Origin: Escherichia virus TH28
Sequence record: MT446402.1
DNA length: 55,824 bases
Reading direction: 5' to 3' (one strand)
Of the stretch, positions 1-55,824 are shown piece after piece (within the stretch, counting starts at the first letter, position 1; each line of letters opens with the position of its first letter). Both the position numbers and the translations under genes were made by a program. The notes under the pieces are model-generated. The model was not told where the DNA came from and did not search any database. It saw nothing but the letters and a program-made list of their open reading frames with translations.

Positions 1-53
1 TTCGGGGAGATTGCGATATCAACCTGAACTAAATCAGAAATTGGGATTGACAT
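1..53 (-). CDS. tail sheath protein, N-terminal fragment cut by window edge (copy A)
   Basis: Reverse translation of 1-53 gives MSIPISDLVQVDIAISP, the N-terminus of the 482-aa ORF at 50677..52125. Confidence 0.4.
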   Translation of the reverse strand, partial: MSIPISDLVQVDIAISP

Positions 54-56
54 TTA

Positions 57-575
57 TTAAACCTTTTTGGTTGTGATAAGTGTATTACCATCATAGAAGT
101 TGCCACCAACATATGCGCCAGACATGACTCCGATAGGACTCAAATCTTCACGAATAATATTGAATTGCATTCTAACCGCTTGGCGAACTTCCCAATTGGT
201 TTCCATTTGTATGGTGGCAAGATTTAAAGGTTCTTTACCAAGAGCAGCAAACTTCTCCTGCTTCAATTTGGCTTGAACATCGGGACGGTAAAACGAATTA
301 TCAAACTTGATAAATTCATCACCCTCACGAGAAAACATTATTGCAAATGTCAGAATACGAACACCACGAGTACGGAATATCTCTTCGCCATTAATGGTTA
401 CTATTCTGTTCTCGTCAAAACCTGGGTTGGTGCTTGATAAACATTTGATTGCAGCATACTCACCATGGGGTCGGGGAGCGTTAATCTGCATGTTGTATGT
501 AAATTGTGGGATGCCCACACATACATCTACAATCTCTTTCATGGATTGTAGTTCTTCAAGTCTAATATCCATCAC
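57..575 (-). CDS. head-tail joining / tail completion protein (copy A)
   Basis: 172-aa ORF between capsid genes and sheath; near-identical paralogue at 52128..52646. Confidence 0.4.
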   Translation of the reverse strand: MMDIRLEELQSMKEIVDVCVGIPQFTYNMQINAPRPHGEYAAIKCLSSTNPGFDENRIVTINGEEIFRTRGVRILTFAIMFSREGDEFIKFDNSFYRPDVQAKLKQEKFAALGKEPLNLATIQMETNWEVRQAVRMQFNIIREDLSPIGVMSGAYVGGNFYDGNTLITTKKV

Positions 576-988
576 TTCTCCAGTACACGAGCGGCAATTA
601 CAGAGAAGAATCCGGCATCTTCATAATCGTTTATTGCTATAACTTTATACTGAATGCCATAAACAGTGATGATTGATTTCATCGGCATTTCAGTACGACT
701 ATGAATCTTCATAAATGCTGGCTGACGTTCACCAACATCAGTTGCTTTAAGCTGTTGACCAGCTACACCCGAATCCCTGTCACCATATGCAATGGGAGTA
801 CAGCGGAACTTCTTCGGAGGTGCCCAAGAGTCTTCCACCCAATTATTAAGATTGTCATAATGACCTTCTATATATACTGCAAGGGTAGGACGACCAGTGG
901 TTGTGTATTTGTTGAAAGCTAAGCGTTGATTAATCAAAACTGGAACCCAGGACTTAACCTCGGCCCAGCAAATGCCATGCGCCGCCAT
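572..988 (-). CDS. head-tail connector region protein (copy A)
   Basis: 138-aa ORF in structural block; paralogue at 52643..53059 with divergent N-terminus. Confidence 0.4.
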   Translation of the reverse strand: MAAHGICWAEVKSWVPVLINQRLAFNKYTTTGRPTLAVYIEGHYDNLNNWVEDSWAPPKKFRCTPIAYGDRDSGVAGQQLKATDVGERQPAFMKIHSRTEMPMKSIITVYGIQYKVIAINDYEDAGFFSVIAARVLEK

Positions 989-1323
989 TGCAAATAACGT
1001 TGACCGTACACGGTTGACATGAAATCAGCTTCGATATATGGAATAGTCGAAATGATTCGGTCGCTGAACTCTACCTGTACATCGTCCACATCGGTACGAC
1101 TTACAGGCATAGCTGGCATTGCGGCATCACCAGGCATTATGTCGTCAATTGTTGAAGACCAATGCGCGACAAGTGATGCCATAGCTGGGTCATAAAACCC
1201 ACACCAACGCGATTCGATTGTACCCATCACAAGTTTTGCATCTTCAACTAAGATATCAAAACGACCTTGGGTCATGTCAGCCATAGCCGGATAACGTTTC
1301 ACCAAATCGGTCAGTGTAATCAT
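934..1323 (-). CDS. head-tail connector region protein (copy A)
   Basis: 129-aa ORF; paralogue at 53005..53394. Confidence 0.4.
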   Translation of the reverse strand: MITLTDLVKRYPAMADMTQGRFDILVEDAKLVMGTIESRWCGFYDPAMASLVAHWSSTIDDIMPGDAAMPAMPVSRTDVDDVQVEFSDRIISTIPYIEADFMSTVYGQRYLQWRRMAFAGPRLSPGFQF

Positions 1324-1763
1324 TATGCCAACTTATCGTAGAGAGCCAGTTTAACATCTTCCGGCATACCCTTGACGTCAACCCCATTCTTAACAAGGAT
1401 AGCATCAATATCAGGCATACCAACTTTCACGCGTTCAACAATGGAAAGAGAGCCAGCTTTGATTGCTTCTTTGACCAGGTTGACTTTACGAGTTTTACCA
1501 GTGCTGTAATACTCCTTGATGACCAGAGCTTCTTTACCAGTCTTAACAGAAGCGCCGATATTCTCGTCATCAAGCTGAACTACTTCTTCGCGCAGTTCTT
1601 CAACTTCCGTCATGGACTCCGTAAGAGACTTGTAAACTTCATCGTCGATTTCTACAGTTGCGCCACCAGGAACATGAATAAAGTCCAGCTCAGATTTGCC
1701 AGACTTCCCTTTCTTATAGAAGAAGAATTGAAGGTTGCGGGATTCGTTGTTCTTAATCTGCAT
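1323..1763 (-). CDS. head-tail connector region protein (copy A)
   Basis: 146-aa ORF; paralogue at 53395..53835 with many substitutions. Confidence 0.4.
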   Translation of the reverse strand: MQIKNNESRNLQFFFYKKGKSGKSELDFIHVPGGATVEIDDEVYKSLTESMTEVEELREEVVQLDDENIGASVKTGKEALVIKEYYSTGKTRKVNLVKEAIKAGSLSIVERVKVGMPDIDAILVKNGVDVKGMPEDVKLALYDKLA

Positions 1764-1810
1764 TACTATTTCTCTTAAGTTGTGGGCGAGAATAGTCCCG
1801 CCCTGTTTTA

Positions 1811-2818
1811 TTAGATGCCGGAGTTGATGGAGATTGCTGCCGGGTACATCGTTTGGAAGCCAGCGAAACGACCACGGCCAGGTACTTCATAAATCAGGCC
1901 ATGAAGCTGTACTGGTTGCCAGGTCAGCGGCAGAGGCTCACGCAGACGGAAAGTACGGTTGCCCATTGCGTTGCGGCAAACAACTACGAAGCAATCAGAA
2001 CCAGCATTGCCATGACCTTTGATTGCGTTCAGACCCTTGATTTTGTCGCGGGAGTTGATGAACTGGTTGTTGGCAATGAAGAACTGACCAATCGTCTTAT
2101 CAGACTGTTCAGAACGTGCGGTGTTGAAGATGTACTGCTCATGCTCAACAGGCATCCAGATTTCATCAGGGCGCATGATTTTCAGAGTAGAGGCATACAT
2201 TGCAGACACAGCAGCAGTCAGGTCGGCGATAACTTCGGTCGGAGTCTTCTCGGTCCACTTAGTAGAACCGCCAGCACCCTGAGCAACAGTTGCTTTGGTA
2301 ATGTCTGGGTTTTCGAAGAAGCCAACGAAGCCGTTAGCCTGGTCGCCGTACCATGCAGCAGAGTTTACATACTGCTCGTAACCACGAATCGCAGCATTTG
2401 CTTTACGAGTTTCCAGCGGCAGACCAGTTACAGCAGCAGATGCAACTTCGTCAATGTCGTAGTCGAATGCAGTACCAACAGACTTAACTGTTACGCTGTA
2501 TTCTTTACCAGAAATGCTAGACTTAGGCAGGTCAGTTGCACGGGCGTTAATCACCTGAGCTTTACCAACATGGTTGTAAGAACGGTAGGTCAGAGTGTTT
2601 ACGCCAGCACCGCCAGTGGTGTCCACGCCGAAAGCAGCACGCGCTTCCAGTTCAGGGTACAGGGTGTCGTAAGTTTGAGCTTCAATGAACTCAAGCTGGC
2701 GTTGAAAGAATACTGCGTCGTCATCGTTCAGGACAACAGTGCCAGAATCCTGGATACGAGTGATGGCGTCGTTCAGTTCAAATTCAGAACCGTCAGCCAG
2801 TTTAATCATCTTAGGCAT
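1811..2818 (-). CDS. major capsid protein (copy A)
   Basis: 335-aa ORF downstream of portal, protease/scaffold and decoration genes; size fits an HK97-fold capsid protein; paralogue at 53879..54886. Confidence 0.55.
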   Translation of the reverse strand: MPKMIKLADGSEFELNDAITRIQDSGTVVLNDDDAVFFQRQLEFIEAQTYDTLYPELEARAAFGVDTTGGAGVNTLTYRSYNHVGKAQVINARATDLPKSSISGKEYSVTVKSVGTAFDYDIDEVASAAVTGLPLETRKANAAIRGYEQYVNSAAWYGDQANGFVGFFENPDITKATVAQGAGGSTKWTEKTPTEVIADLTAAVSAMYASTLKIMRPDEIWMPVEHEQYIFNTARSEQSDKTIGQFFIANNQFINSRDKIKGLNAIKGHGNAGSDCFVVVCRNAMGNRTFRLREPLPLTWQPVQLHGLIYEVPGRGRFAGFQTMYPAAISINSGI

Positions 2819-2858
2819 TGTGATGTAATTCCATTATGTTGGCATATTGCCATTAAAT

Positions 2859-3203
2859 TTATGCTGTCCACACTTTAGACAGAGATGTACCTGCAACAGA
2901 CGTCCCGTAGGAGTCCTCAATTGTGCAGTTTACAGAGAAAGTTTTGCCAACCTGGTCGGCTGGAGTGGTTCCAGTAATGTGGGCGCGATTTACCGCGTCA
3001 TTTACCAGAGATAACCCACCAGCCCCTTCGGTTTCCATAGCAAACTTATAAATATAACTTCCATCATCTGCTTCTACCACTGCGGCAGGGTCAGTACGGA
3101 TGTAAAAGTCTACAGCTTCACCAGCAGTCAGTACAGCACCGATAGTGTTGCTCCACCCGCTTGTACCATTTGCAGAGTATTGCGTCTGACCGACGGAAGT
3201 CAA
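2859..3203 (-). CDS. Ig-like (Big_2-type) domain protein, probable capsid decoration (copy A)
   Basis: 114-aa Thr/Val/Ala/Gly-rich beta-type sequence between decoration and capsid genes; counterpart 54931..55182 has a different sequence. Confidence 0.4.
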   Translation of the reverse strand: MTSVGQTQYSANGTSGWSNTIGAVLTAGEAVDFYIRTDPAAVVEADDGSYIYKFAMETEGAGGLSLVNDAVNRAHITGTTPADQVGKTFSVNCTIEDSYGTSVAGTSLSKVWTA

Positions 3204-3220
3204 TTTAGCCTTCGGTGTGG

Positions 3221-3691
3221 TTACGCCTTTGGGAGTACGTTAATCATTACTGGAACAACATCACCAGCAGCCGCCGGATAGCGAAGTGCAGTCAGGTTTG
3301 TAGCAGCAGTGTAGGTGCCATCAACGCCACCAAATTGACCAGTGGCAGATACGCCAATGTTCTTGTCAGTGATTGCAGTAACCAGTTTAACCATGATTGG
3401 GCCAGACAGCATACGCCCAGAGGCCAGCCAGCTTTGATTGCAACAGTGCCGTCACCAGGACGGTTGCGATTCGATGTTAATCTGGCGCATAGTAATGCCC
3501 AGAACAGTGCCGTCGGCTTCAATACCAGGCTTAACCTGATTAGAAGCAGTACCCTGAACAACAGCTAAACCAAAGTTAGCCATTTCAGCTTCAGCATTGA
3601 AAGTCAGGCGCTGAGAGTTAGTGGTAGCCAGGCCATATTGCTCACCCGCATATGCTGCACCAGTATTAATAGACCAATCTTGCTTTGGCAT
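3221..3691 (-). pseudogene. head decoration-like protein, disrupted copy (copy A)
   Basis: Intact 157-aa homologue at 55224..55697; here a 2-nt and a 1-nt deletion relative to copy B create an out-of-frame stretch with an in-frame TGA at 3452-3454. Confidence 0.5.
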
Positions 3692-3700
3692 TGTCTTACC

Positions 3701-4942
3701 TTATAAAGAGTTGAAGCGTTCTAAACGACGTTTGTTAGCTTCTTCGGAAATAGAAACTTTAGGCTTACGAGCTTCTGAATCTTTCTTAGCAGAGAATTGC
3801 ATAGATTGGTTCAGTGCATCGCCCAAAGTAATGGAATCACAATCTTCAAGTGCTGCATCGAAACGAGCAGAGATATAATCTTCACTCTTATCGCTGAAAT
3901 CCTTGTCATGCAATTTATTAACTACAGCCAACTTAACTTCTGAATCGGACTTGCCGGAGAAATCAAGACTGGAGAATTCGTCGCCAAGACGGGCCACATC
4001 AATGAGAAGTGCTGTACGAGCAACAACACGTTTGTCTACCTCAGCCTGAATGGCTTCATCGGATAGTCGTGCAGTTTCTGCATCAGCAAGTTTCTGCTCA
4101 AGGGTGCTAATCTTGTCAAGCGCCGCATCACGCTCTGCTTCAACAACATCAAAGGTTGCCTTATCGACAATGGAAATCTCTTCACCAGAGTCACCAATGC
4201 GAGTAGTCTGAGCACGACCACGAACAACAATTGCAGCATGGTTAGGGATAATACGAACTTTGTCGAAGTCTGCATCGGCATCTTCTGCAACAGCCAGTTC
4301 TGCATTATGCCCCAGGGAGATTTGGTCAACGCCAGAATCAACTAATCGAATGGCTTGCTCGTCATTCAAAACGATTGATGCAGCCAAGAAAGAACCGTCT
4401 GCAATTGGACGACCTTCGATGAACCCTTTCTGGAGTTCTTTGTTGTTCTTGATATTGACGTCATCTTTTGGATGGCCGATAGTAACCGGAATTGAGCGAC
4501 AACCTTCGATGGTTGCTTCATCAAATAATACTTCCGGTTTGGTGCGAACACGGCAAACAGATTCTGGGTCTAGATGTTTTGCAATCTCACCAAGTTCTTT
4601 CGCTTTGTACAGCATAATGCCAGTACGAGCAATGGTGCATTCTGCAATCATTTCGCCAGAGTCGCGTAAACGACGGGTCGTCAGAGTAGCCTTGTCGGTT
4701 AACAAAACTACTTCATTCACAGTATCTTCGTCGTTAAGCTGGACCAGGTTTTGGCTTTGCTTCACTTGCGTTACCCTTTTGGATGTTAGGAGGTTTAGGA
4801 TTTGGCTTACCAAGGTCACAAGTTCCGAACACGCCCGAATGGAACATGACTTCATTTGCAACTTGCGTAGTAATGGTGCCGTTGTTAACCAGTAGGTCAA
4901 CAGCAAATGCCAAATCTTTAGCTCGCTTCGCTTTCTCAACAT
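3701..4942 (-). CDS. prohead protease / scaffold-like protein (true start probably near 4740)
   Basis: Acidic, helix-rich 413-aa ORF directly after portal; position typical of protease-scaffold fusions; overlaps portal ORF so an internal start is likely. Confidence 0.45.
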   Translation of the reverse strand: MLRKRSELKIWHLLLTYWLTTAPLLRKLQMKSCSIRACSELVTLVSQILNLLTSKRVTQVKQSQNLVQLNDEDTVNEVVLLTDKATLTTRRLRDSGEMIAECTIARTGIMLYKAKELGEIAKHLDPESVCRVRTKPEVLFDEATIEGCRSIPVTIGHPKDDVNIKNNKELQKGFIEGRPIADGSFLAASIVLNDEQAIRLVDSGVDQISLGHNAELAVAEDADADFDKVRIIPNHAAIVVRGRAQTTRIGDSGEEISIVDKATFDVVEAERDAALDKISTLEQKLADAETARLSDEAIQAEVDKRVVARTALLIDVARLGDEFSSLDFSGKSDSEVKLAVVNKLHDKDFSDKSEDYISARFDAALEDCDSITLGDALNQSMQFSAKKDSEARKPKVSISEEANKRRLERFNSL

Positions 4943-6050
4943 TGGATTCAGGGAAGATATCTAACCATTCATAGTCATATTCTTCAATGCCAAAGTGCGC
5001 TTGGACAATCTTGTCTACCACATCTAAACGAGGGTCGAACACAGAAGTCTGCAAGCCAGTCAACAAGTCGATATAGTTTACGAGGTCAGATTCGCCCGTA
5101 GCGTTCATACCGTCTGGAGATGCAGAAAGGAAACGTGTAGCCGGAATACCAACTGCGGCAGCAACTATCTTTAAGTATTCCCAAATCAAATCTTTCACAC
5201 CAGATAGTGCAATTGACTTGGTGTCATACTTCTCAGTGTTGTCGAGAATTAGGACATTATAAATACTCTTTGCCAGCTTCATGAGTTTGAAGCGCTTCAT
5301 CACAGCAGCTTCACCTTCCGGTGATGTAAGCAGAGATTGTAAGCCTTCAACAGTTACCACATCAATTGTGGCTTCTTGAGCAAGGCTGGCAGCAGCAGCA
5401 GCGGTTGTATAAAATTGGTCAATCGTTTTCAGCAGTGGAATAAGTACCGAATCAGAATACCACATGTTACGTTGGAATTCGAACAGTGGGAGTTCAGTAC
5501 CCTCGAACCGAAGGAAACGAGTGTAGTGGATATAGCCGGGATACCCAGCCAAAGTGTAAAACTCTGGCAAACCATAATGAGGACTCAAGGGGTCCAGCAC
5601 CATAGTTCCTGCGGCAAATAAGCGTGAGCGGTCAATAACTCTCATGGATTTAATACATCCAGTCTTCAAGTTATCCAGACGCAATGGTGTATCAAGTTTA
5701 CCCGTCCCTTTCAGGTCGAGTAAAACAAATGAAGTCCCATAGAGTCTGGCCCATTGATATGCTTCACGGAACAGTTTGCGGATACGAAGTTTCTTATCTG
5801 CTTTGCGCCCTTCTTCACTATCAATATGTCGCCACTTACGCGTCATGTCTTGAGGAATAACGGTACACACTTTCTGCGATACCCAATCCTCACGGAAGCG
5901 GTTCATTAGTTCGCGATAGTTCGCGTTCTTGTTGGAGAAAGACCACTGGTTAAAAGTAGACTTATCTGCCTGACCGCCCAACCCTGTTACAAGGTTTTCT
6001 AATCCATCCGCAACTTTGACAGAGAGATTGTTTTTCTTTTTGGAAGTCAT
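4734..6050 (-). CDS. portal protein
   Basis: 438-aa ORF immediately downstream of large terminase, upstream of scaffold and capsid genes. Confidence 0.6.
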   Translation of the reverse strand: MTSKKKNNLSVKVADGLENLVTGLGGQADKSTFNQWSFSNKNANYRELMNRFREDWVSQKVCTVIPQDMTRKWRHIDSEEGRKADKKLRIRKLFREAYQWARLYGTSFVLLDLKGTGKLDTPLRLDNLKTGCIKSMRVIDRSRLFAAGTMVLDPLSPHYGLPEFYTLAGYPGYIHYTRFLRFEGTELPLFEFQRNMWYSDSVLIPLLKTIDQFYTTAAAAASLAQEATIDVVTVEGLQSLLTSPEGEAAVMKRFKLMKLAKSIYNVLILDNTEKYDTKSIALSGVKDLIWEYLKIVAAAVGIPATRFLSASPDGMNATGESDLVNYIDLLTGLQTSVFDPRLDVVDKIVQAHFGIEEYDYEWLDIFPESNVEKAKRAKDLAFAVDLLVNNGTITTQVANEVMFHSGVFGTCDLGKPNPKPPNIQKGNASEAKPKPGPA

Positions 6051-6262
6051 TATTTCTTCCTTAGAACAGTTCCATTACCTTTAACAATTTGAATGTTGTC
6101 GGAGGTGTGGAGTCGCAGATTTGACTCGTGCTTTAACTTAACACAGTCACTCTCTGTGGTAGAAACTGCCTCAATCACGCACAGAATGTTCCCTTCCAAA
6201 TCTTGAATCTGGAGGGAGTTGTTCTTGCGGGAGCGGGCATCTAATCGAGTGATTACCGCCAT
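6050..6262 (-). CDS. hypothetical small protein (internal start of ORF 6050..6412)
   Basis: ORF overlaps terminase 3' end; Met at 6262 gives a non-overlapping 70-aa product. Confidence 0.3.
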   Translation of the reverse strand: MAVITRLDARSRKNNSLQIQDLEGNILCVIEAVSTTESDCVKLKHESNLRLHTSDNIQIVKGNGTVLRKK

Positions 6263-6263
6263 A

Positions 6264-8309
6264 TTACATCCATGCCGAGTAGTTGGCACTTGGGCCGGAG
6301 AATTCGATTGCAACCATATCTGAAACGTTATCGACACAATCGTCGTGTCCAGTACCACTACCCAAAGAAGTGAATCCAAGTATTTCACGTCTAACGTGGT
6401 CAATGTGTTCATGACCAGCAGGGAAGAATATCCTCTTTTGAGAGAAATATGGGATTGCGTTAAGGAATCGAGTTACCTTGTCATTACCGTTAATGCCATC
6501 GCGAGGCAGTGGTAAGACTCGGACACTCCCATCTCTAATAAATTGTTGGTTCAAGAACTGTCCAGCAGACTTATCTTCCATGTACAAAGCACGAGGAATG
6601 CAGCCTACATATTTCAAATCCAACTTATTGCATTTATTCCAGAAGTCGATAATAGCAGTCTTGAGTTCTGGAGTTTCAAACTTACCGAGCATGATATCTA
6701 AACAATAAACATCACGCTCTTTAGTCACGCCCCAATGCTTAAGGACCGAATAGTCAGAATAAGACTTGGCAGTAGATGCCGTGTCAGCAGTAATGAAACT
6801 TCTAACTATGCGACTTCTGTCGAAAGCGTCTGGCTCATACTCTTGCCACCAATCTTCTTTAACAAGGCCATGACCTTGGGCAGACGGGTCGCCAGCATAC
6901 TGTGAGTTGTATGTGTATGGGTTGGACTCCTTCATTGCCTCCAAAGATTCTAAACTCTTACGTGAGGGCCACAATGCAGACTTCTCTTCTTTCCTGTTCA
7001 AATCATAGAGAATAGGGATAGCATGAGTGTAGTTCTGCTTCTTAATTAATTTGTCGTACCACTGAGCACTGCCAACACCTTTCTCAATAATCGCTGGGAT
7101 GTTGAGATAATGATATTTATCAGAGGAACCACCACGGAGTATATAGCCAACTAAATCTTGGTCATGAACTCGCTGCATGATGATAACCATTGGAGTACGA
7201 GAGCACTTAATTTGGTTTCCACGAGAATCGGTTATGCACCCATCATTGGCAAGACGGGACATAAAGGTGTTATCAAAGCGGTCGTTGATTTCTGCTCGAA
7301 CTGTGTCAGAGTAGGCATCCTTAGGTTTGATAACGTCATCCACCACAAAGCAACCAGAGTAGTTTGCAACAAGAAGTCCAGCACCTTTACCAGTTAATTT
7401 ACCACCAGTAGGTACTGCGTGCATAACTCCAGCTTTGGTCGTACCCCAGCGTTCAAGGGAACGTTTGTTGGGGTCGATTCTCACCTTTGGGAATATGCGT
7501 TGGAATAGTGGGTCCAGCATTACTGCGCGGATGTAACCGCTCGATTCCAATACAACGTCTTCTGCATAGGAGGTGATGATGTTGTGGCTTGATTCATTGT
7601 GGCAAAATGAATACAGTGGTAGTGCAATACTCATAAGCTGAGTCTTGGAATGTCGTGGTGGAATGGTGACAATTAGTCGGTCAATCTCACCGTCAACAAC
7701 TTTCTGACCTACTTTGAATATTACATCGTGAAAGTCTTGAGACTGGAATGGGAATCCCATTTGAATATGGAACTGCCATTTACCAAATGCTTCAAAACTC
7801 TTCATCAAAACTTTACGGACTTGTTCTGCAACCTTGGCTGGGATTACAGATGGGTCAACGTTGTGTGGGTCATAAAGGATTTTATCGACAAGCTCTTGAG
7901 TATTGTCGTGTTCAGAAGTTGGCTCTTCTAAAGTCGAACCAGCTACACGGTCTGATACCCCAGCTTGGATTCCTTTCTTCAACTCGTCGGCATACGCAGT
8001 TGAATCTTTCTTATCGCCAGAGCGAAGGCGCTCAAGTTGTGCTCGGAAAACGGAACGCAACACAGCATCGTTTTCCAGACCCTGGCCTTCTAACTCTGCT
8101 TGAATTTGTTCTTCATAGCTGTCAACTATCGCAGAGTTTTCTGAAATATATCGACGGAGCAATGGCAAAGATAGAATGCAGAATCTTTCTCTTGAGACTT
8201 TTAATACGTCACCGTAGTGTTTGGCAAGATACGAGGCTACTGTATCATTAAACTCCGGTCCGAGGTCATCAGTCTTTGACATTGATTCGTTCTCTTTGGT
8301 TTTAATCAC
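6264..8309 (-). CDS. terL: terminase large subunit
   Basis: 681 aa; Walker A-like PRHSKT, Walker B-like VVDD, C-terminal acidic nuclease motifs (ADTA, GHDD). Confidence 0.8.
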   Translation of the reverse strand: MIKTKENESMSKTDDLGPEFNDTVASYLAKHYGDVLKVSRERFCILSLPLLRRYISENSAIVDSYEEQIQAELEGQGLENDAVLRSVFRAQLERLRSGDKKDSTAYADELKKGIQAGVSDRVAGSTLEEPTSEHDNTQELVDKILYDPHNVDPSVIPAKVAEQVRKVLMKSFEAFGKWQFHIQMGFPFQSQDFHDVIFKVGQKVVDGEIDRLIVTIPPRHSKTQLMSIALPLYSFCHNESSHNIITSYAEDVVLESSGYIRAVMLDPLFQRIFPKVRIDPNKRSLERWGTTKAGVMHAVPTGGKLTGKGAGLLVANYSGCFVVDDVIKPKDAYSDTVRAEINDRFDNTFMSRLANDGCITDSRGNQIKCSRTPMVIIMQRVHDQDLVGYILRGGSSDKYHYLNIPAIIEKGVGSAQWYDKLIKKQNYTHAIPILYDLNRKEEKSALWPSRKSLESLEAMKESNPYTYNSQYAGDPSAQGHGLVKEDWWQEYEPDAFDRSRIVRSFITADTASTAKSYSDYSVLKHWGVTKERDVYCLDIMLGKFETPELKTAIIDFWNKCNKLDLKYVGCIPRALYMEDKSAGQFLNQQFIRDGSVRVLPLPRDGINGNDKVTRFLNAIPYFSQKRIFFPAGHEHIDHVRREILGFTSLGSGTGHDDCVDNVSDMVAIEFSGPSANYSAWM

Positions 8310-8487: not shown

Positions 8488-8541
8488 AAGCGACTCCGAA
8501 TAAGATAGGAGGCCAGATAGCCTCCCTATTATGCGTGCCGC

Positions 8542-8871: not shown

Positions 8872-8900
8872 TCAGATAGGTTCCAAATAGTTACTAATTA

Positions 8901-9352: not shown

Positions 9353-9354
9353 GG

Positions 9355-11243: not shown

Positions 11244-11254
11244 TTCAACTCCAA

Positions 11255-35162: not shown

Positions 35163-35164
35163 TA

Positions 35165-48800: not shown

Positions 48801-49570
48801 TCTCCAACAACAGATTCAGAACCAAGTTGAGGTAATGAATCCATGTATGAAAGTTTTGGCCCCGACTTATTTCCTACATTCATTGCAGATACGGCAGCAA
48901 CTTCTCGGAAGTTTTGCGGCAATTCTGATTCTAAACGTTTGGCTACACGATAAACATCTCGTGCATAGCGGTCTGGGTTGTCGTATTGTTCACGGTCAAC
49001 ATACATGTGAGCAAGATAGCCAAATGACTTGGCAATATCTCCACGGTTTGTGGAATATTCATCCATAATATTACCGGTATAGTGTCCGGCAAGTTCAGGC
49101 ATTATATCTTGATGACCTGCAAGAGTATCTCGCATGTACGAGTTAAGCATTCCCCAATGACCTTCCGGCTTGTTGGGGTTGGCTTTAGGCATGTGCATCC
49201 AAACATCATCAGCGGATACACCAAGTTGTTCCATGTATGCGTGAACTGCTTCTACATGGTGTCCTGGTCCGTTCATTGCAGCATGGAATGTTTCAGTCAG
49301 CCCAGCGCCAGAAATCATCTGTGCTATATGTGCTGCATCTGAAATCATATCAGAAGTCCCGTATGAAGTTTCATCCTCATACATCTGGGAATCTGGTTCG
49401 CCCAAAAGCTGTGAATTTGTTTCCATCCAACCTGACGCAGCACTTGATTCAAGTTGCTGGGCCATATCTCGTTTGCGCATACCAGGATTGAAGGACAGAC
49501 CGTACTGAGCACCCATGCCGATTAGTTCGGCCTCGGATAGCTTCATTAAATCTTTTAAGTTCTTAGCCAT
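45893..49570 (-). CDS. tape-measure-position protein with YqaJ-like nuclease domain, Gly-rich segment and C-terminal lytic transglycosylase domain
   Basis: 1225 aa; residues about 455-600 carry QGTQEW...ITGS, SPDGL, WEHK (PD-(D/E)XK YqaJ pattern); residues 740-810 are Gly-rich; residues about 1040-1140 carry the SLT motif GEESGN...SPTGAKGRMQV. Confidence 0.7.
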   Translation of the reverse strand: MAKNLKDLMKLSEAELIGMGAQYGLSFNPGMRKRDMAQQLESSAASGWMETNSQLLGEPDSQMYEDETSYGTSDMISDAAHIAQMISGAGLTETFHAAMNGPGHHVEAVHAYMEQLGVSADDVWMHMPKANPNKPEGHWGMLNSYMRDTLAGHQDIMPELAGHYTGNIMDEYSTNRGDIAKSFGYLAHMYVDREQYDNPDRYARDVYRVAKRLESELPQNFREVAAVSAMNVGNKSGPKLSYMDSLPQLGSESVVGDILHPRQPLNASGLPIGSFGGGIKSEYSLSASLSGSPGWSDASKTLYQDVSGVVKSAAKVYSGGAERGMNAYRTQSSDRDLILDSASRYADIADVRSGYDNLKKDIGDDPRYSGTSIRGVLENAHQYNEAEVSRTFDPAERLRNTGPTELSPSTEFIAQLDSPTSWNSARSRRESIAISNLDSAPQPAPQEGPIRYHNMEQGTQEWLDFRKQYDITGSTVGSFLGNNEYNRPWAAMVDKIGLQRGKGPSEFTQRMFEAGHRTEEVARNRVAKEFGFDIEQAGAITNDNYPSFMYSPDGLIGDDAIWEHKNPERAKKFSNLSAGEHKDYLDQLQFGMLVSGRSRALFSQTIGDKTVSEWIEKDEGWYERNKDKIDSTIGRLNAGREFVEANSDLSNDDLIKGARAAMTGDGIWKDVKQKSTRGYSAAAGTADDPFIGNRTSAGVGEATASAVGSDSTTGNDLMAVSVKKGILAAQEENKLRGQDADFGDNGGRGGGGGFWDTFDASSYGIGGGGSGGGGGRGWNTGGSFSDDFGRAGGALAAGVAGGSIGSLSNGAMNALMMTPWGRVAGMAIGATQIGNEALEGLNDFYGNSLDAGVNNPNEYSSMSQGLEMLGLNQQQAGRLNRTTHSAYNTLLNGDPSGAVNIVQGTRGLITIGDIRAAQGDPVALARVMRERGQERGWSQARIAGAMEMAGLDGMARAYDRTDYSVNEAQENVSRGANSQYADGIAQLGIAQTERAGVLPGYAVPQAAISYGSSFIEAGGDAARVARTASNGLADTTRTVYDFIAGEESGNRDLNADGSVVTSPTGAKGRMQVLDSTSRDPGFGVKPARDNSLEERARVGRDYYDAMLKRYNGDAEKAMAAYTDGAGTVDDAINKHGTDWLNAVPLQAQNRVKKYREWASQGDSIAEGATGFTRNGLSYGQTQATVVNVEVKATVNNKQASATVSTPNGQTVTQTINMGNGAMERR

Positions 49571-49841
49571 TGTCTTCTTCTTTAGGTTTTAGTTCATTAC
49601 GCAAATCAAGTATTGCGTGGAAAGTTAACAAATCCATAATAGAGTAGGTCCCGTCCGAGAGTTCTTTAAGAGAACAGAGAGAACTGTCCTCTATTACAGG
49701 ACGGTGCAGGAAGTATTTTATTTCCGGGAACTTCTGAGTTAAATCGTTTCCGGACTCGAATTCTTCTGCTCGGCCATTTTGGATGCTTCCACCGCCTCCA
49801 ATTGTCTGCGTTCGTTGAGTTCGAGCCCTTGCTTGAAAAAA
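49563..49841 (-). other. -1 frame extension of tail assembly chaperone (frameshift product)
   Basis: From the slippery heptamer the -1 frame stays open for about 92 codons and stops at 49563-49565, overlapping the next gene's ATG at 49568-49570. Confidence 0.5.
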
Positions 49842-50197
49842 TCAAGGAAGTTCGATTCAAGAACAAATGCAAACACATGGTGCATGAGCATTAAATTGCC
49901 GTTGTACTTCATCTGCATAGTGCGTGGATTAACTTCGACACCATCAATGGTTGCCATACACACTACACGTTTAATTAATTCTGTTACTTCCGTATGAGTT
50001 CCACCCTGCTGCATCAAATGAATAATGTCTGCAAAGTTATATTTGTTCTCAACGAATGGGAATATCGAAATACCGAGTTTCTGAACAAGCTCGACTTGGA
50101 GGTCAAGAGCTTGGCTGGCACCGAGTTGTCGCGTACCAACCAAGACTGTCTCACCAGAGTCGGCTTGTAACTCGCGTTGGCGAAGTTCACAAGCCAT
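49739..50197 (-). CDS. tail assembly chaperone
   Basis: 152-aa ORF between tube and tape-measure-position genes; contains slippery site. Confidence 0.55.
   Translation of the reverse strand: MACELRQRELQADSGETVLVGTRQLGASQALDLQVELVQKLGISIFPFVENKYNFADIIHLMQQGGTHTEVTELIKRVVCMATIDGVEVNPRTMQMKYNGNLMLMHHVFAFVLESNFLDFFKQGLELNERRQLEAVEASKMAEQKNSSPETI
49835..49841 (-). promoter_or_regulatory. -1 ribosomal frameshift slippery heptamer U UUU UUC
   Basis: Minus strand gat-ttt-ttc with zero-frame codons UUU UUC (X XXY YYZ pattern). Confidence 0.5.
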
Positions 50198-50211
50198 GCT
50201 CTTACCTTATA

Positions 50212-50667
50212 TTAAACGCCGATTTCTGGATACTGGCCAGTCACGATGGTGAGGCGTTCTACAAACACAGCCCACATATTCGAAGTGAAGGTTACACCAC
50301 GAACGATTGCTGGCTGTTGCAGAATTGCACCGTTGACACCGTTAACCAGTACGTCACCCATCTTGTCAACCAATTGCAACTGCAAAGGTTCCCAGAGGGA
50401 TTTGTTACCAGACAAACCAGTTGCACGAGTAAGCTGTGCACGTTGGTAAAGGATTTCGTTCCAGTCTGCCGTTTGCAGCAGTGGGAAAGTGATAACCCCA
50501 GACTGGTCAGCAGTGGTTGCTACAGCAAGTTTGCCGTAAGCATCCATAACAGGAACATGCTGTGGCACGTTGTAGCGTGCCGTAATTACAGATTGCCCTG
50601 CCTGAAAACCGTCTACACGAGCACCGTCAATCAGGAGGTCTGTATTATAAAACGAATATTGCTTCAC
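50212..50667 (-). CDS. tail tube protein
   Basis: 151 aa between sheath and chaperone genes. Confidence 0.5.
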   Translation of the reverse strand: MKQYSFYNTDLLIDGARVDGFQAGQSVITARYNVPQHVPVMDAYGKLAVATTADQSGVITFPLLQTADWNEILYQRAQLTRATGLSGNKSLWEPLQLQLVDKMGDVLVNGVNGAILQQPAIVRGVTFTSNMWAVFVERLTIVTGQYPEIGV

Positions 50668-50676
50668 TGTTCACCC

Positions 50677-52125
50677 TTACTGAATGAAGTTGCCAGAGAT
50701 TACAGCACCCTGGATTGCACCGGAACCGATAGCAATAAAGGAAGTACCTTCCCAAATACGTTCACCCTTCTGCGACTGCAAGAGTTCTAACGGAGTAGAA
50801 ATAACTTTGTAGCCTTCTGGATAGAAGACGCCTTCGTTATCATAGCCAGGGGCAATGAGGCCGTTAGTCTTAGCGAGTTCGAGCGCCAGGGTTACTTGCT
50901 GGTTAACCATTGCTACACCAGTGTCCGTCCAAGGAATCTTGGTAGTGGAGGTGTAGAACAAGTTGAACACGTTCAGTCGAACTTTCTGAGTCAGCCATTC
51001 AACACCTTGTACGGAGTCGAACCATGTGCCGTCAGCCATACGACCGTTGTAGAACATTACGTTGCCAGCAACAGAAATGAATGCGTTACCACCACAAGAA
51101 AGCAGCGCACTTACCTGCCCAGAAGACAGGTCAGCAGTGGCGATACCTGGACCTTTCTTGTATGCCAGAATAAGAACAGAGTTTGCAACGTTAAAGTTAA
51201 CAGTTGATGCACGACCCAGGATAGAAATTTCCGGATATTCATCACCATTCGCAGAAGCATCGTAAACACACAGAGTGTTACGCAGGTTCTGGTTCTTAGC
51301 ACGACGGAAGCTGTTATCAGTGCCGTTGATAAGAATGTTCTTGTCGTTATCACCCCAGCCAAATACTTTGCTGGATGCTTCACACCACTTCGCCACAGAC
51401 ATTTGGTTGTCTACTGGAGAGGTTTTGCCACGATACTGGCGGTCAAGGCCCACATAGAAGAAGTTGAATGGAGCATCTGCAATATTAGACAAGTCGGAAG
51501 AAATGGATAGCTCGTTCTTACCAGCAACAATAACTGCGCTGTCAGAAGATTGCAGTTTCAGTACTTCACCAACTTTACCACCAACGTTGCTGATAGTTGC
51601 GTTGATGCCAGTTGCAGAAGTGGTCAGCTTGAACTTGCCAGCTTCCTGAGTAACAGTTACGCCAGCACCAACAGAAGATAGTGCAGTAGTTACTAGAGTT
51701 GCAACTTCTTCGAAGTCAGCAGCAGCAGAGAAATCAATCGGGTCAGTAACATACTGAACACCGCTAACACTTAACTGCATGGTTGCAGCAGTTTCCAGCT
51801 TAATGGTTGCCAATACAGCAGCAGTTGCAGCAGTAACAGTGGCAGGAGTTGCTGGAGTCAAAGTATCGTACTTGATAGCACCAACCAGGAAAGTCTTCGG
51901 AGTTGGCTTCTGCGAGTACCAAGAGGTAGCAGCTTTAGCAATCTCACCACCAGGGAAGTCTGCGAGAACTTCTTTCAAACTGGTATAGGAACGAACCGGA
52001 TATACATCAACGGTCGGTACAAACTCTTTGCTCATAAAGAGCAATGGCCCAAAACCATCGGTCGCAATGGCGTTCGGGGAGATTGCGATATCAACCTGAA
52101 CTAAATCAGAAATTGGGATTGACAT
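50677..52125 (-). CDS. tail sheath protein
   Basis: 482 aa immediately upstream of tube gene; size and position fit Mu/P2-type sheath. Confidence 0.5.
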   Translation of the reverse strand: MSIPISDLVQVDIAISPNAIATDGFGPLLFMSKEFVPTVDVYPVRSYTSLKEVLADFPGGEIAKAATSWYSQKPTPKTFLVGAIKYDTLTPATPATVTAATAAVLATIKLETAATMQLSVSGVQYVTDPIDFSAAADFEEVATLVTTALSSVGAGVTVTQEAGKFKLTTSATGINATISNVGGKVGEVLKLQSSDSAVIVAGKNELSISSDLSNIADAPFNFFYVGLDRQYRGKTSPVDNQMSVAKWCEASSKVFGWGDNDKNILINGTDNSFRRAKNQNLRNTLCVYDASANGDEYPEISILGRASTVNFNVANSVLILAYKKGPGIATADLSSGQVSALLSCGGNAFISVAGNVMFYNGRMADGTWFDSVQGVEWLTQKVRLNVFNLFYTSTTKIPWTDTGVAMVNQQVTLALELAKTNGLIAPGYDNEGVFYPEGYKVISTPLELLQSQKGERIWEGTSFIAIGSGAIQGAVISGNFIQ

Positions 52126-52127
52126 TA

Positions 52128-52646
52128 TTAAACCTTTTTGGTTGTGATAAGTGTATTACCATCATAGAAGTTGCCACCAACATATGCGCCAGACATGACT
52201 CCGATAGGACTCAAATCTTCACGAATAACATTGAATTGCATTTTAACCGCTTGGCGAACTTCCCAATTGGTTTCCATTTGTATGGTGGCAAGATTTAAAG
52301 GTTCTTTACCAAGAGCAGCAAACTTCTCCTGCTTCAATTTGGCTTGAACATCGGGACGGTAAAACGAATTATCAAACTTGATAAATTCATCACCCTCACG
52401 AGAAAACATTATTGCAAATGTCAGAATACGAACACCACGAGTACGGAATATCTCTTCGCCATTAATGGTTACTATTCTGTTCTCGTCAAAACCTGGGTTG
52501 GTGCTTGATAAACATTTGATTGCAGCATACTCACCATGGGGTCGGGGAGCGTTAATCTGCATGTTGTATGTAAATTGTGGGATGCCCACACATACATCTA
52601 CAATCTCTTTCATGGATTGTAGTTCTTCAAGTCTAATATCCATCAC
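52128..52646 (-). CDS. head-tail joining / tail completion protein (copy B)
   Basis: 172 aa; 2 substitutions relative to 57..575. Confidence 0.45.
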   Translation of the reverse strand: MMDIRLEELQSMKEIVDVCVGIPQFTYNMQINAPRPHGEYAAIKCLSSTNPGFDENRIVTINGEEIFRTRGVRILTFAIMFSREGDEFIKFDNSFYRPDVQAKLKQEKFAALGKEPLNLATIQMETNWEVRQAVKMQFNVIREDLSPIGVMSGAYVGGNFYDGNTLITTKKV

Positions 52647-53059
52647 TTCTCCAGTACGCGAGCGGCAATCACGGAGAAGAACCCAGCATCTTCATAATCG
52701 TTTATTGCTATAACTTTATACTGAATGCCGTAAACAGTGATAATGGATTTCATAGGCATCTTAGTACGACTATGAATCTTCATGAATGCTGGCTGACGTT
52801 CGCCAACATCAGTCGCTTTAAGCTGTTGACCAGCTACACCTGAATCCCTGTCTCCATATGCAATGGGAGTACAGCGGAACTTCTTCGGAGGTGCCCAGGA
52901 ATCTTCCACCCAGTTATTAAGATTGTCGTAATAACCTTCTATATAAACTGCAATGGTGGGTCGGTTTGTGGTTGTGTATCTGTTAAATGCTCGACGTTGA
53001 TTTATCACATCTGCCACCCTGGAGAAATTCGAGGGCCAGCAAAAGCCATACGTCGCCAT
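52643..53059 (-). CDS. head-tail connector region protein (copy B)
   Basis: 138 aa; paralogue of 572..988. Confidence 0.4.
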   Translation of the reverse strand: MATYGFCWPSNFSRVADVINQRRAFNRYTTTNRPTIAVYIEGYYDNLNNWVEDSWAPPKKFRCTPIAYGDRDSGVAGQQLKATDVGERQPAFMKIHSRTKMPMKSIITVYGIQYKVIAINDYEDAGFFSVIAARVLEK

Positions 53060-53394
53060 TGCAAATAACGTTGCCCATAAACGGTAGACATGAGGTCAGC
53101 TTCAACATAGGGAATTGTTGAAATGATTCGGTCGCTAAACTCTACCTGCACATCGTCAACATCTGTACGACTTACAGGTATAGATGGCATAGCAGCATCC
53201 CCAGGCAGTAGGTCGTCAATTGTTGAAGACCAATGCGCAATAAGGGATGCCATTGCTGGGTCATAAAACCCACACCAACGCGATTCGATTGTTCCCATCA
53301 TCAGTTTTGCATCTTCAACTAAGATTTCAAAACGGTCTTGGGTCATGTCAGCCATTGCAGGATAACGTTTAACCAAATCGGTTAGTGTTATCAT
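53005..53394 (-). CDS. head-tail connector region protein (copy B)
   Basis: 129 aa; paralogue of 934..1323. Confidence 0.4.
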   Translation of the reverse strand: MITLTDLVKRYPAMADMTQDRFEILVEDAKLMMGTIESRWCGFYDPAMASLIAHWSSTIDDLLPGDAAMPSIPVSRTDVDDVQVEFSDRIISTIPYVEADLMSTVYGQRYLQWRRMAFAGPRISPGWQM

Positions 53395-53835
53395 TTACGC
53401 CAACTTATCGTAGAGGGCCAGTTTAGCTTCTTCCGGCATATCTTTGATGTTCACGCCGTTAGCAACCAACACTTTATCAATGTCAGGCATACCAACTTTC
53501 ACGCGTTCAACAATAGACAGACTGCCAGCTTTGATAGCTTCTTTGACCAGGTTTACTTTACGAGTTTTACCCGTGGTGTAATATTCCTTAATCACGAGTG
53601 CTTCTTTGCCAGACTTAACGTCAGCACCAATGTTGGAGTCGTCCAGCTTAACTTCTTCTTCACGCATCACTTCAACTTCAGTGACAGAAGAGGTAATTGC
53701 TTTATACACTTCATCATCAATTTCAACAGTTGCACCGCCAGGAATGTGTACAAAATCCAGTACAGGTTTGCCAGATTTATCCTTCTTATAGAAGAAGAAT
53801 TGGAGGTTGCGAGTTTCGTTGTTCTTAAGCTGCAT
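53395..53835 (-). CDS. head-tail connector region protein (copy B)
   Basis: 146 aa; paralogue of 1323..1763. Confidence 0.4.
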   Translation of the reverse strand: MQLKNNETRNLQFFFYKKDKSGKPVLDFVHIPGGATVEIDDEVYKAITSSVTEVEVMREEEVKLDDSNIGADVKSGKEALVIKEYYTTGKTRKVNLVKEAIKAGSLSIVERVKVGMPDIDKVLVANGVNIKDMPEEAKLALYDKLA

Positions 53836-53878
53836 TACATTTCTCTTAAATTAGGCGAGATTTCTCCCGCCATCTGGG

Positions 53879-54886
53879 TTAAATACCGGAGTTGATGGAG
53901 ATTGCTGCCGGGTACATTGCCTGGAAGCCAGCGAAACGGCCACGACCAGGTACTTCATAAACCAGACCATGCAGCTGAACTGGTTGCCAAGTTAACGGCA
54001 GCGGTTCACGCAGACGGAAGGTGCGGTTGCCCATAGCTTCACGGCACACAACTACGAAGCAATCTGCGCCAGAAGCACCGTGACCTTTGATTGCATTAAG
54101 GCCCTTGATTTTGTCACGGGAATTAATGAACTGGTTGTTGTCAATGAAGAACTGACCGATAGTCTTATCAGACTGCTCAGAACGTGCGGTGTTGAAGATG
54201 TACTGCTCATGCTCAACAGGCATCCAGATTTCAGAAGGACGCATGATTTTCAGAGTAGATGCGTACATTGCAGACACAGCAGTGGTCAGGTCAGCAATAA
54301 CTTCGGTCGGAGTCTTCTCGTTCCACTTGGTAGAACTGCCAGCGCCCTGAGCAACAGTTGCTTTGGTAACGTCTGGGTTTTCGAAGAAGCCAACAAAGCC
54401 GTTAGCCTGGTCGCCGTACCATGCAGCGGAGTTTACATACTGCTCGTAACCACGAATCGCAGCATTTGCTTTACGAGTTTCCAGCGGCAGACCAGTTACA
54501 GCAGCAGATGCAACTTCGTCAATGTCATAGTCGAATGCAGTACCAACAGACTTAACTGTTACGCTGTATTCTTTACCAGAAATGCTGGACTTCGGCAGGT
54601 CGGTTGCACGGGCGTTGATTACCTGAGCTTTACCAACATGGTTGTATGAACGGTAGGTCAGCGTGTTAACACCAGCGCCGCCAGTAGTATCAACACCGAA
54701 AGCAGCACGAGCTTCCAGTTCAGGATACAGGGTGTCGTAAGTTTGAGCTTCAATGAACTCAAGCTGACGTTGAAAGAACACTGCGTCGTCGTCATTCAAA
54801 ACAACGGTGCCAGAGTCCTGGATACGGGTGATGGCATCATTCAGTTCAAATTCAGAACCGTCGGCCAGTTTAATCATCTTTGGCAT
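53879..54886 (-). CDS. major capsid protein (copy B)
   Basis: 335 aa; paralogue of 1811..2818 with few substitutions. Confidence 0.55.
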   Translation of the reverse strand: MPKMIKLADGSEFELNDAITRIQDSGTVVLNDDDAVFFQRQLEFIEAQTYDTLYPELEARAAFGVDTTGGAGVNTLTYRSYNHVGKAQVINARATDLPKSSISGKEYSVTVKSVGTAFDYDIDEVASAAVTGLPLETRKANAAIRGYEQYVNSAAWYGDQANGFVGFFENPDVTKATVAQGAGSSTKWNEKTPTEVIADLTTAVSAMYASTLKIMRPSEIWMPVEHEQYIFNTARSEQSDKTIGQFFIDNNQFINSRDKIKGLNAIKGHGASGADCFVVVCREAMGNRTFRLREPLPLTWQPVQLHGLVYEVPGRGRFAGFQAMYPAAISINSGI

Positions 54887-54930
54887 TAAATTTATTCCAT
54901 TAGGCGCAGATTATTCTACGCCAATTAAAC

Positions 54931-55182
54931 TTAAGGATGCGTAATGGTGATTGCTTTAGTAGCAGTTACACCAGGAGCAGTCTTATGAGTTGCTTTGATT
55001 GTTGCAGAAGTCGCAGTACCAATCGTCGCAGTTGCAACAGTTACAGTACCATTGGCCGCCACAGTTACTCCAGTGACCGCTGGGTCAACAGTGAAGTTGT
55101 AGTCACTTGCAACAGAGTTTGCAAACGTAAACAGTTTATCAACAGTTACGGTAGCATTTACAGTTGAAGCATCAGCAGTCAC
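54931..55182 (-). CDS. Ig-like (Big_2-type) domain protein (copy B, different sequence from copy A)
   Basis: 83 aa, Thr/Val/Ala-rich beta-strand repeats (VTVAANGTVTVATATIGTAT). Confidence 0.4.
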   Translation of the reverse strand: MTADASTVNATVTVDKLFTFANSVASDYNFTVDPAVTGVTVAANGTVTVATATIGTATSATIKATHKTAPGVTATKAITITHP

Positions 55183-55223
55183 AGCCGCCGCTACCGCAGT
55201 AACGGTCGGTGCTGGAGGTGGCG

Positions 55224-55697
55224 TTACGACTTTGGGACTACGTTAATCATGACCGGAACAACATCACCAGCAGCAGCCGGATAGCGAAGTGCAGTCAGGT
55301 TGGTTGCCTTAGTATAGCCAGCGCCAACACCACCAAATTGACCAGTGGCAGACACGCCAATGTTCTTGTCAGTGATTGCAGTAACCAGTTTAACCATGAT
55401 TGGGCCAGACAGCATAACGCCCAGAGGCCAGCCAGCTTTGATTGCAACAGTGCCGTCACCAGGACGAGTTGCGGATTCGATGTTAATCTGGCGCATAGTA
55501 ATGCCCAGAACAGTGCCGTCGGCTTCAATACCAGGCTTAACCTGATTAGAAGCAGTACCCTGAACAACAGCTAAACCAAAGTTAGCCATTTCAGCTTCAG
55601 CATTGAAAGTCAGGCGCTGAGAGTTAGTGGTAGCCAGGCCATATTGCTCACCCGCATATGCTGCACCAGTATTAATAGACCAATCTTGCTTTGGCAT
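55224..55697 (-). CDS. head decoration-like protein (copy B, intact)
   Basis: 157-aa ORF; intact version of the split gene at 3221..3691. Confidence 0.45.
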   Translation of the reverse strand: MPKQDWSINTGAAYAGEQYGLATTNSQRLTFNAEAEMANFGLAVVQGTASNQVKPGIEADGTVLGITMRQINIESATRPGDGTVAIKAGWPLGVMLSGPIMVKLVTAITDKNIGVSATGQFGGVGAGYTKATNLTALRYPAAAGDVVPVMINVVPKS

Positions 55698-55706
55698 TGT
55701 CTTACC

Positions 55707-55824
55707 TTATAAAGAGTTGAAGCGTTCTAAACGACGTTTGTTAGCTTCTTCGGAAATAGAAACTTTAGGCTTACGAGCTTCTGAATCTTTCTTAGCAGAG
55801 AATTGCATAGATTGGTTCAGTGCA
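55707..55824 (-). CDS. prohead protease / scaffold-like protein, C-terminal fragment cut by window edge (copy B)
   Basis: 55697-55824 is identical to 3691-3818, which covers the 3' end of ORF 3701..4942. Confidence 0.4.
   Translation of the reverse strand, partial: ALNQSMQFSAKKDSEARKPKVSISEEANKRRLERFNSL

Follow-up and report, generated by a model that had tools for sequence, protein, structure and literature searches.

Divergent copies of a head/neck gene block at the ends of the Escherichia virus TH28 record: a probable wrap-around overlap of two variants

Terminal repeats of the Chaseviridae and the ends of the TH28 record

Genomes of the Chaseviridae are described as 52-56 kb in size and non-permuted, with fixed direct terminal repeats of 2.3-3 kb. 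In PYps23T, a direct terminal repeat of 2,339 bp was established from restriction digests, ligation-PCR, and direct sequencing (PMC8762354), while vB_EamM-Y2 and PM1 have repeats of ~2.6 kb and the ICTV profile gives ~3 kb for the family. The copies of these repeats are identical and lie in the RNA polymerase or early region. The complete record of Escherichia virus TH28 (MT446402; 55,824 bp, GC content 44.1%), which we analysed over its full length and refer to as the window, resembles these genomes in that a repeat of a few kilobases terminates a linear sequence; its end repeat, however, is divergent and lies in head genes, and thus differs from the family's terminal repeats in both location and identity of the copies. 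TH28 itself belongs to the Chaseviridae (Cleopatravirinae), with 92-100% identity to TH23, TH24, TH25, TH29, TH33, the PYps phages, MLP1, and PO103-1 and with conserved gene order. The record is flagged "UNVERIFIED" and is a Geneious de novo assembly from MiSeq reads (SRX8326074). According to the genome announcement, the sample was a plaque-purified isolate and not a metagenome, making a mixture unexpected; nine related chaseviruses (TH23-26, TH28, TH29, TH33, TH37, and TH53) were sequenced in the same project.

Two kinds of assembly product offer closer parallels. The records of TH23 (MT446397, 52,433 bp) and TH33 (MT446406, 52,851 bp), which come from the same pipeline, represent a single ~52.0-kb unit in permuted form, cut at different, arbitrary points, and they end in untrimmed wrap-around overlaps of 434 and 847 bp, respectively. 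As in TH28, the repeat coincides with the record ends and the period with the genome unit. In contrast to a usual untrimmed wrap-around overlap, the TH28 overlap is 3.8 kb long and ~90% identical, with ends apparently built from different haplotypes, so that the identical copies expected of a plain overlap are not what we find. Chimeric contigs of strain variants from mixed populations, on the other hand, share with TH28 the long identical anchors, the divergence between them, and the errors clustered at the transition; their fragmentation is matched by an independent assembly of what is apparently the TH28 run, although TH28 is a plaque-purified isolate.

We propose that the window ends are very probably a wrap-around overlap assembled from two co-present variants and left untrimmed, and hence an artefact and not a feature of the genome. 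That they reflect real terminal redundancy of virion DNA, perhaps in the form of a terminal-redundancy heterozygote excised from a mixed concatemer, might be suspected since Chaseviridae are terminally redundant, since 3.8 kb is comparable in magnitude to their 2.3-3 kb repeats, and since circular permutation was suggested for phiEcoM-GJ1 in one early report. We nevertheless consider this extremely improbable: the PYps23T repeat, whose copies are 100% identical to each other, maps to ~31.1-33.3 kb of the window (Table 1), ~21-28 kb away from the end copies and at over 21 kb from each of them; the cut points of the TH23 and TH33 records, which represent the same genome, lie elsewhere; and a single heterozygous molecule cannot be phased by a short-read consensus.

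Table 1 Features of the TH28 window, with strand and basis of assignment
Feature	Coordinates	Strand	Basis or remark
Copy A, head/neck block, extra variant haplotype	1..3818	-	blastn, global alignment, TH23 comparison
Copy B, head/neck block, TH23/TH33 haplotype	52073..55824	-	100% identical to TH23 and TH33
One complete genome unit, ~52.0 kb; corresponds to the TH23/TH33 genome without second terminal repeat	3482..55487		comparison with TH23/TH33
Homologue of PYps23T direct terminal repeat, RNA polymerase region, single-copy in window	31128..33269	-	
Tail terminator/completion gene	A 57..575, B 52128..52646	-	PF23961, phrog_12771; 2/172 residues differ
Head protein gene, 138 aa	A 572..988, B 52643..53059	-	phrog_11887; 87.5% nt identity, dN/dS 0.17
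DUF4054 head-tail adaptor gene	A 934..1323, B 53005..53394	-	PF13262; dN/dS 0.10
146-aa structural-block gene	A 1323..1763, B 53395..53835	-	phrog_14310; 79.8% nt identity, dS 0.88
Major capsid protein gene	A 1811..2818, B 53879..54886	-	PF09950; 12/335 residues differ, dN/dS 0.05
Cassette A, 114-aa protein in place of copy B's 83-aa Ig-like protein	2859..3203	-	phrog_18016
Cassette B, 83-aa Ig-domain protein	54931..55182	-	phrog_13745
Capsid cement protein gene	A 3221..3691, broken into ORFs 3452..3691 and 3221..3412; B 55224..55697, intact, 157 aa	-	PF22758
Extra T (TT to TTT), window-only, just upstream of sheath start codon, copy A	53		relatives' alignment
Window-only 1-nt deletion splitting dUTPase gene (150 aa, intact in TH23/TH33)	9140..9141		

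Two haplotypes of the head/neck block

Blastn and global alignment place the two end copies exactly where the original prediction had located them (Table 1). Copy A includes 53 nt from the start of the sheath gene at one end and C-terminal coding sequence of the head maturation protease gene at the other. By blastn, 1-2836 and 52073-54902 are 89.8% identical and 3214-3818 and 55217-55824 are 96.1% identical, while the intervening 2837-3213 and 54903-55216 are unalignable, with a cassette of 0.3-0.4 kb replaced. The copies are otherwise collinear, and identity is 96-100% after the cassette. In the global alignment, identity is 98-100% at 1-600 (with another stretch of full identity, 201-600, within the block), falls to 73-77% near 900-1000 and 1500-1700, and is 100% from 3482 to the edge. 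The haplotypes differ by up to 28% within the block. With lengths of 3818 and 3752 nt, the copies differ by 66 nt, against a predicted difference of about 65 nt, and the repeat period is 52,072 when measured at the left end and 52,003-52,006 at the right. The whole 55,824 bp contain no further long direct repeat. The window being a complete record, the repeat does not, contrary to expectation, continue past the window edges, nor is it longer than its visible part.

At the level of genes, the predicted pattern holds: the first pair is nearly identical, divergence is higher in later genes (27 of 146 residues differ between 1323..1763 and 53395..53835), and the Ig-like gene of copy B is replaced by an unrelated one (114 versus 83 aa; BLASTP E = 3.3). 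Five gene pairs are intact and functional-looking in both copies, with dS values of 0.39-0.88 and dN/dS of 0.05-0.17.

The remainder of the window is essentially the genome of TH23 and TH33. Window 3482-55824 is 99.97-100% identical to these two phages, 33473-55824 has 0 mismatches, and the region around copy B (49600-55824) is 100% identical; the differences between copy A and TH23 are confined to 1-3481, and 3482-3818 is shared. Overall, 3-5 SNPs, one deletion, and the lengths of homopolymers separate the window from TH23 and TH33, the SNPs being at 8384, 8589, and 18019 for TH23 and additionally at 8838 and 22821 for TH33. TH23 and TH33 carry copy B only, lacking copy A and cassette A, and their cement and dUTPase genes are intact. 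With one copy removed, the window becomes the unit found in independent assemblies, i.e. 3482-55487 corresponds to the ~52.0 kb of TH23/TH33, and a Logan contig from a sister run measures 52,017 nt.

These comparisons bear on the possibility, also raised in the original prediction, of a genuine tandem duplication. In a heteroallelic form of it, two divergent head/neck blocks would stand in series following unequal recombination with a co-infecting relative, giving two capsid-gene sets per particle. Such a phage would package a 55.8-kb genome plus the terminal repeat, produce the major capsid protein from two alleles alongside two different decoration cassettes, and be a natural example of a virulent phage with a heteroallelic duplication of structural genes. 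The five intact gene pairs and the presence of both copies within one deposited contig speak for it, and because family genomes reach 56 kb, a length of 55.8 kb does not by itself argue against it. However, the record holds no junction between the end of copy B and the start of copy A, the similarity ending only where the record ends; no second copy was seen in any related phage record or metagenomic contig inspected; TH23 and TH33, essentially the same genome, are single-copy; the cement gene is broken in copy A; packaged DNA including a 2.3-3 kb terminal repeat would reach ~58 kb, above the 52-56 kb of the family; and a divergence reaching dS 0.88 is much too old next to 3 SNPs to TH23 over the other 48 kb of the window. 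We therefore regard a tandem duplication as very unlikely.

The same values (dS up to 0.88 and dN/dS of 0.05-0.17 relative to copy B) argue that copy A did not diverge in place. Instead, sequence comparison identifies it as an allele of natural origin. Its best database match is PYps23T, at 96.2%, and no record is identical; aligned with ten relatives, it is a mosaic in which different segments match different phages. At 1350-2250, for instance, copy A shares 94-99% identity with PYps23T and MLP1, whereas copy B is 72-93% identical there. Exact matches to copy-A proteins are spread across TH26 and the Logan/ENA samples SRR10828589, SRR29215567, and ERZ15184968: the DUF4054 protein occurs in TH26, the 146-aa protein in two unrelated samples, and the major capsid protein in Logan SRR10828589. 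Each haplotype is thus a natural allele elsewhere, copy B in TH23/TH33 and the copy-A proteins in other phages and samples. Among candidate donors of copy A, TH53 was ruled out by its identity of 83.5-90%, and TH24, TH25, TH26, TH29, and TH37 were ruled out by segment comparison.

Assembly of the ends from two co-present variants

Altogether, the data fit a scheme whereby the TH28 genome comprises ~52.0 kb together with a duplicate of its 2.3-3 kb direct terminal repeat. Because short reads collapse this repeat, the assembly would behave as a circle and the contig could overrun its own start; overlaps of this kind are left untrimmed in this data set. The TH28 reads would contain two close haplotypes that are near-identical over most of the genome and unmergeable in the head/neck block. 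As a consequence, one contig end may have been built from haplotype B (that of TH23/TH33) and the other from haplotype A, with the shared sequence beyond the right edge of the block (from 3482) anchoring both versions to one backbone. The outcome would be a divergent terminal overlap of 3.8 kb, while each phage particle would carry a single copy of the block. The original prediction had suggested a contig joining co-existing variants of a circularly permuted genome. Its two-variant part agrees with the TH23/TH33 backbone, with the natural alleles in copy A, and with heterogeneity in the Logan data, whereas circular permutation does not fit the non-permuted genomes of the family. We infer the presence of both haplotypes in the TH28 library, rather than their introduction at another step, and likewise infer which of them belongs to the plaque-purified phage.

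The Logan assembly of SRR11772971, a run assigned to TH28 by only one unique allele (in a 61-aa protein), provides an independent view. Its contig SRR11772971_1163 has 8384C and 8589G, the alleles specific to the window, and yet differs from the window at 7956 and 7959, suggesting a second haplotype in the backbone in what is apparently the same run, and also at 9140. At only 1.7 kb, this contig is far shorter than the 52-kb contigs obtained from sister runs. Five copy-A proteins (114 aa, major capsid protein, 146 aa, 129 aa, and 171 aa) were all missing from this Logan assembly when looked up; copy A may be at low coverage in the run, may come from another source, or the contigs may be too fragmented to hold whole genes. 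The 129-aa copy-B protein was found in Logan only on five contigs, each at least 50 kb (samples being collapsed in the output), and no entry was found for the 138-aa copy-B protein or for the 76-aa protein with the 18019 allele. A reversed SRX/SRR accession numbering was considered and discarded as a misfit, in that it pairs SRR11772965, which has a TH33-like contig, with TH34, which is not a chasevirus.

The absence of the five proteins from the run with TH28-specific alleles raises the question of whether copy A came from outside the TH28 lysate, either by cross-library carry-over on a shared MiSeq run or as a foreign contig joined manually or automatically. In its favour, nine related chaseviruses were sequenced in one project, and the single-base errors in copy A are typical of thin coverage. 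Against this, none of the deposited sisters (TH23-26, TH29, TH33, TH37, and TH53) is identical to copy A, the best reaching 93%, cassette A is absent from all of them, and the run's own Logan contig shows a second haplotype in the backbone. We hold an outside source to be unlikely, if somewhat less so than a duplication, and favour two variants within the library.

Errors in the record cluster at the transition between the haplotypes. In the cement gene of copy A, single-base deletions unique to the window follow positions 3412, 3462, and 3467. At each, the base is present in 11 of 11 other sequences and the column is A/G polymorphic; they are the final three variant sites ahead of the convergence of A and B, and exactly the sites at which TH24/TH25 differ from B within 3351-3518. 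For three random sites, the chance that all fall on polymorphic columns is ~0.002. A rule by which all window-only indels lie at haplotype-variant sites holds for these three and fails at 9140, in the dUTPase gene, where the missing base is present in SRR11772971_1163 and the site is not polymorphic. Conversion of ambiguous sites into deletions is therefore a partial explanation and cannot account for every indel. The disruptions of the cement and dUTPase genes are errors specific to this record.

Consequences for the record and an exchangeable head/neck module

If our reading is correct, MT446402 overstates the TH28 genome by ~3.8 kb, presents structural genes duplicated from two haplotypes, and has its cement and dUTPase genes disrupted by frameshift errors. 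Its use would mislead gene counts, genome-size statistics, circularity and completeness checks, and pangenome clustering, and checks for exact overlaps would miss the repeat because its ends are only ~90% identical. The main value of the finding thus lies in data hygiene.

The two haplotypes also outline an exchangeable head/neck module, in which the position flanked by the cement and major capsid genes is a slot for variable cassettes. In most related contigs inspected, this slot holds the 83-aa gene of cassette B, and a scan of IMG/VR found no relatives of the cassette-A protein. Cassette A matches another Chaseviridae contig at 344 of 345 nt, while the flanks there are only ~87% identical, and this contrast points to a recent transfer of the module.

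Divergent copies of a head-gene block at the record ends

The original prediction that the window ends are divergent copies of one head-gene block was confirmed by blastn of the ends against each other and by global alignment. By blastn, positions 1-2836 of the left-hand copy (copy A; 1-3818, 3818 nt) are collinear with 52073-54902 of the right-hand copy (copy B; 52073-55824, 3752 nt) at 89.8% identity, and 3214-3818 are collinear with 55217-55824 at 96.1%. In the global alignment, identity is 98-100% over 1-600, lowest (73-77%) around 900-1000 and 1500-1700, and 100% from 3482 up to the end of the copy, while 2837-3213 and 54903-55216 are unalignable. As anticipated, the first gene pair is near-identical (2 of 172 residues differ), later genes are more divergent (27 of 146 residues in the 146-aa pair), and the Ig-like gene (83 aa) is swapped for an unrelated sequence (114 aa; E = 3.3). 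Beyond the end blocks, no further long direct repeat was found in the 55,824-nt window. The idea that the repeat is longer than what is visible is refuted, because the window is the whole TH28 record and there is no sequence past its edges.

Copy A has an extra T at position 53, within the 3 nt that separate the stop codon of the tail terminator gene from the start codon of the sheath gene; it is absent from all 11 compared sequences and leaves coding unaffected.

Genes of the repeated head/neck block, all on the minus strand
Order in window	Gene	Strand	Family
1	Tail sheath, first 53 nt only	-	
2	Tail terminator	-	PF23961
3	138-aa head protein	-	
4	Adaptor	-	DUF4054
5	146-aa protein, function not assigned	-	
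6	Major capsid protein	-	PF09950
7	Small variable gene	-	
8	Capsid cement protein	-	PF22758
9	Head maturation protease, C-terminal part	-	DUF2213

Terminal redundancy and the genome unit

Searches of a phage collection placed TH28 in the Chaseviridae, subfamily Cleopatravirinae. According to the ICTV profile, genomes of this family are linear and non-permuted and have terminal redundancy in the form of long repeats of ~3 kb, a description at odds with the circularly permuted genome that had been proposed. In the close relative PYps23T, a 2,339-bp repeat was demonstrated by restriction digests, ligation-PCR, and direct sequencing (PMC8762354), and its two copies in the PYps23T record are 100% identical. 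This repeat maps to window ~31,128-33,269, where it is present in a single copy. Because that location is >21 kb from either head-block copy, we rejected the window-end repeat as the family terminal repeat, which lies in the RNA polymerase region and has identical copies, whereas the TH28 end repeat is a divergent head block. A short-read assembly behaves as a circle because the terminal repeat collapses.

TH28 (MT446402) was announced at 55,824 bp, 44.1% GC, and 47.8x coverage (PMC7498436); the GC content of the window is also 44.1%, and the GenBank records of the announced TH phages are marked UNVERIFIED and carry no annotation. By direct comparison, the sister isolates TH23 (MT446397; 52,433 bp) and TH33 (MT446406; 52,851 bp) are one ~52.0-kb unit, permuted differently, with untrimmed terminal overlaps of 434 bp and 847 bp, respectively, both at 99.8% identity with one mismatch and one indel in each. 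Since both records keep these overlaps, untrimmed wrap-around is a habit of the data set, and the listed genome sizes of both are inflated too. The window is 100% identical to TH23 and TH33 at its right end (49600-55824) and in its middle part (20000-44000), and the whole of 3482-55824 matches them except for 3-5 SNPs, one deletion, and homopolymer lengths; in essence, TH23, TH28, and TH33 represent a single phage isolated on three hosts. The repeat period at the right end (52,003-52,006) equals the unit length of the sisters, which are identical in sequence to copy B but not to copy A (1-3481).

Two homopolymer runs, 33638-33650 (~13 C) and 33744-33757 (~14 A), vary in length among the three records and lie in an AT-rich non-coding stretch adjoining, and outside, the predicted left genome end; the differences may be sequencing slippage or genuine length variation.

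Origin of copy A and the cassette slot

Comparison with ten relatives shows copy A to be mosaic: 1-600 is like copy B and, from 451, also like TH24 and TH29; 900-1350 is 98-100% identical to TH24, TH25, TH29, and TH37; and 1350-2250 is 94-99% identical to PYps23T and MLP1, where copy B reaches just 72-93%. Exact matches to copy-A proteins exist elsewhere: the 129-aa adaptor is found in TH26; Logan SRR10828589 and ENA ERZ15184968 carry the capsid and 146-aa proteins; and Logan SRR29215567 has the 114-aa protein, where the context is that of Chaseviridae and the cement gene is intact. Copies A and B differ with dS of 0.39-0.88 and dN/dS of 0.05-0.17, values incompatible with divergence in place given that TH28 and TH23 are separated outside the block by three SNPs over the other 48 kb. 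Judged from these rates, the difference is old allelic divergence under purifying selection, and copy A is a set of natural alleles rather than a diverged duplicate.

The alternative of a genuine tandem duplication in TH28 is not supported: the age of the divergence is wrong, a B-to-A junction is absent, packaged DNA would be above the family size range, and relatives carry a single copy, with no genome holding two among the related phage records and metagenomic contigs inspected. The other reading originally offered, a contig uniting two strain variants, is supported by the identity of the backbone plus copy B to TH23/TH33 and by the natural alleles in copy A. One of the two block copies is surplus, and the end repeat is very probably a wrap-around of two haplotypes left untrimmed in a public record that is flagged as unverified. 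As by-products, the analysis corrects the TH28 record and reveals a head/neck module that can be exchanged.

Between the cement and major capsid genes (2837-3213, 54903-55216) lies a variable cassette site, compared in the window and at six further loci. Among relatives it holds a gene of 83 aa (Ig-like), 90 aa, 114 aa (phrog_18016), or 73 aa (a truncated form of the 114-aa gene), or is empty. The copy-A cassette is identical to that of Logan SRR29215567 at 344 of 345 nt in flanks of only ~87% identity, which suggests a recent module transfer. Relatives of its protein (49-66% identity) occur in Nonagvirus-like, phiEap-2-like, and Aeromonas phages, and one of them bears the annotation head outer capsid protein.

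Indels and probable haplotype mixing

A window-only 1-base deletion at 9140-9141, a site not polymorphic among the relatives checked, splits the dUTPase gene (150 aa in TH23/TH33 and relatives). A 61-aa protein with the window-specific 8384 allele has one other source in the collection, contig Logan SRR11772971_1163, presumably the TH28 run assembled independently (1,710 nt, versus 51.8-52.0 kb for sister-run contigs). Because this contig has the base at 9140, the deletion most probably reflects a mistake in the deposited sequence. The contig shares 8384C and 8589G with the window and carries T,T at 7956/7959, positions at which the window agrees with TH23; thus, the backbone consensus appears to switch haplotypes, indicating at least two in the TH28 read set. 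Of five copy-A proteins looked up, none (0/5) turned up in the SRR11772971 Logan assembly, so copy A may be a low-coverage component or may have arrived otherwise, for example through carry-over between libraries, against which no deposited sister phage is identical to copy A.

The mixing of two haplotypes also offers an account of copy A's broken cement gene, which window-only 1-base deletions after 3412, 3462, and 3467 split into two ORFs and which is intact at these sites in all 11 other sequences, including copy B. They are the last three variant positions ahead of A/B identity, each falls on an A/G polymorphic alignment column, and within 3351-3518 TH24 and TH25 differ from copy B at exactly these three; the chance of three random positions all falling on polymorphic columns is about 0.002. 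We infer a mixture of reads from two haplotypes at this place, with loss of the disputed bases from the consensus.
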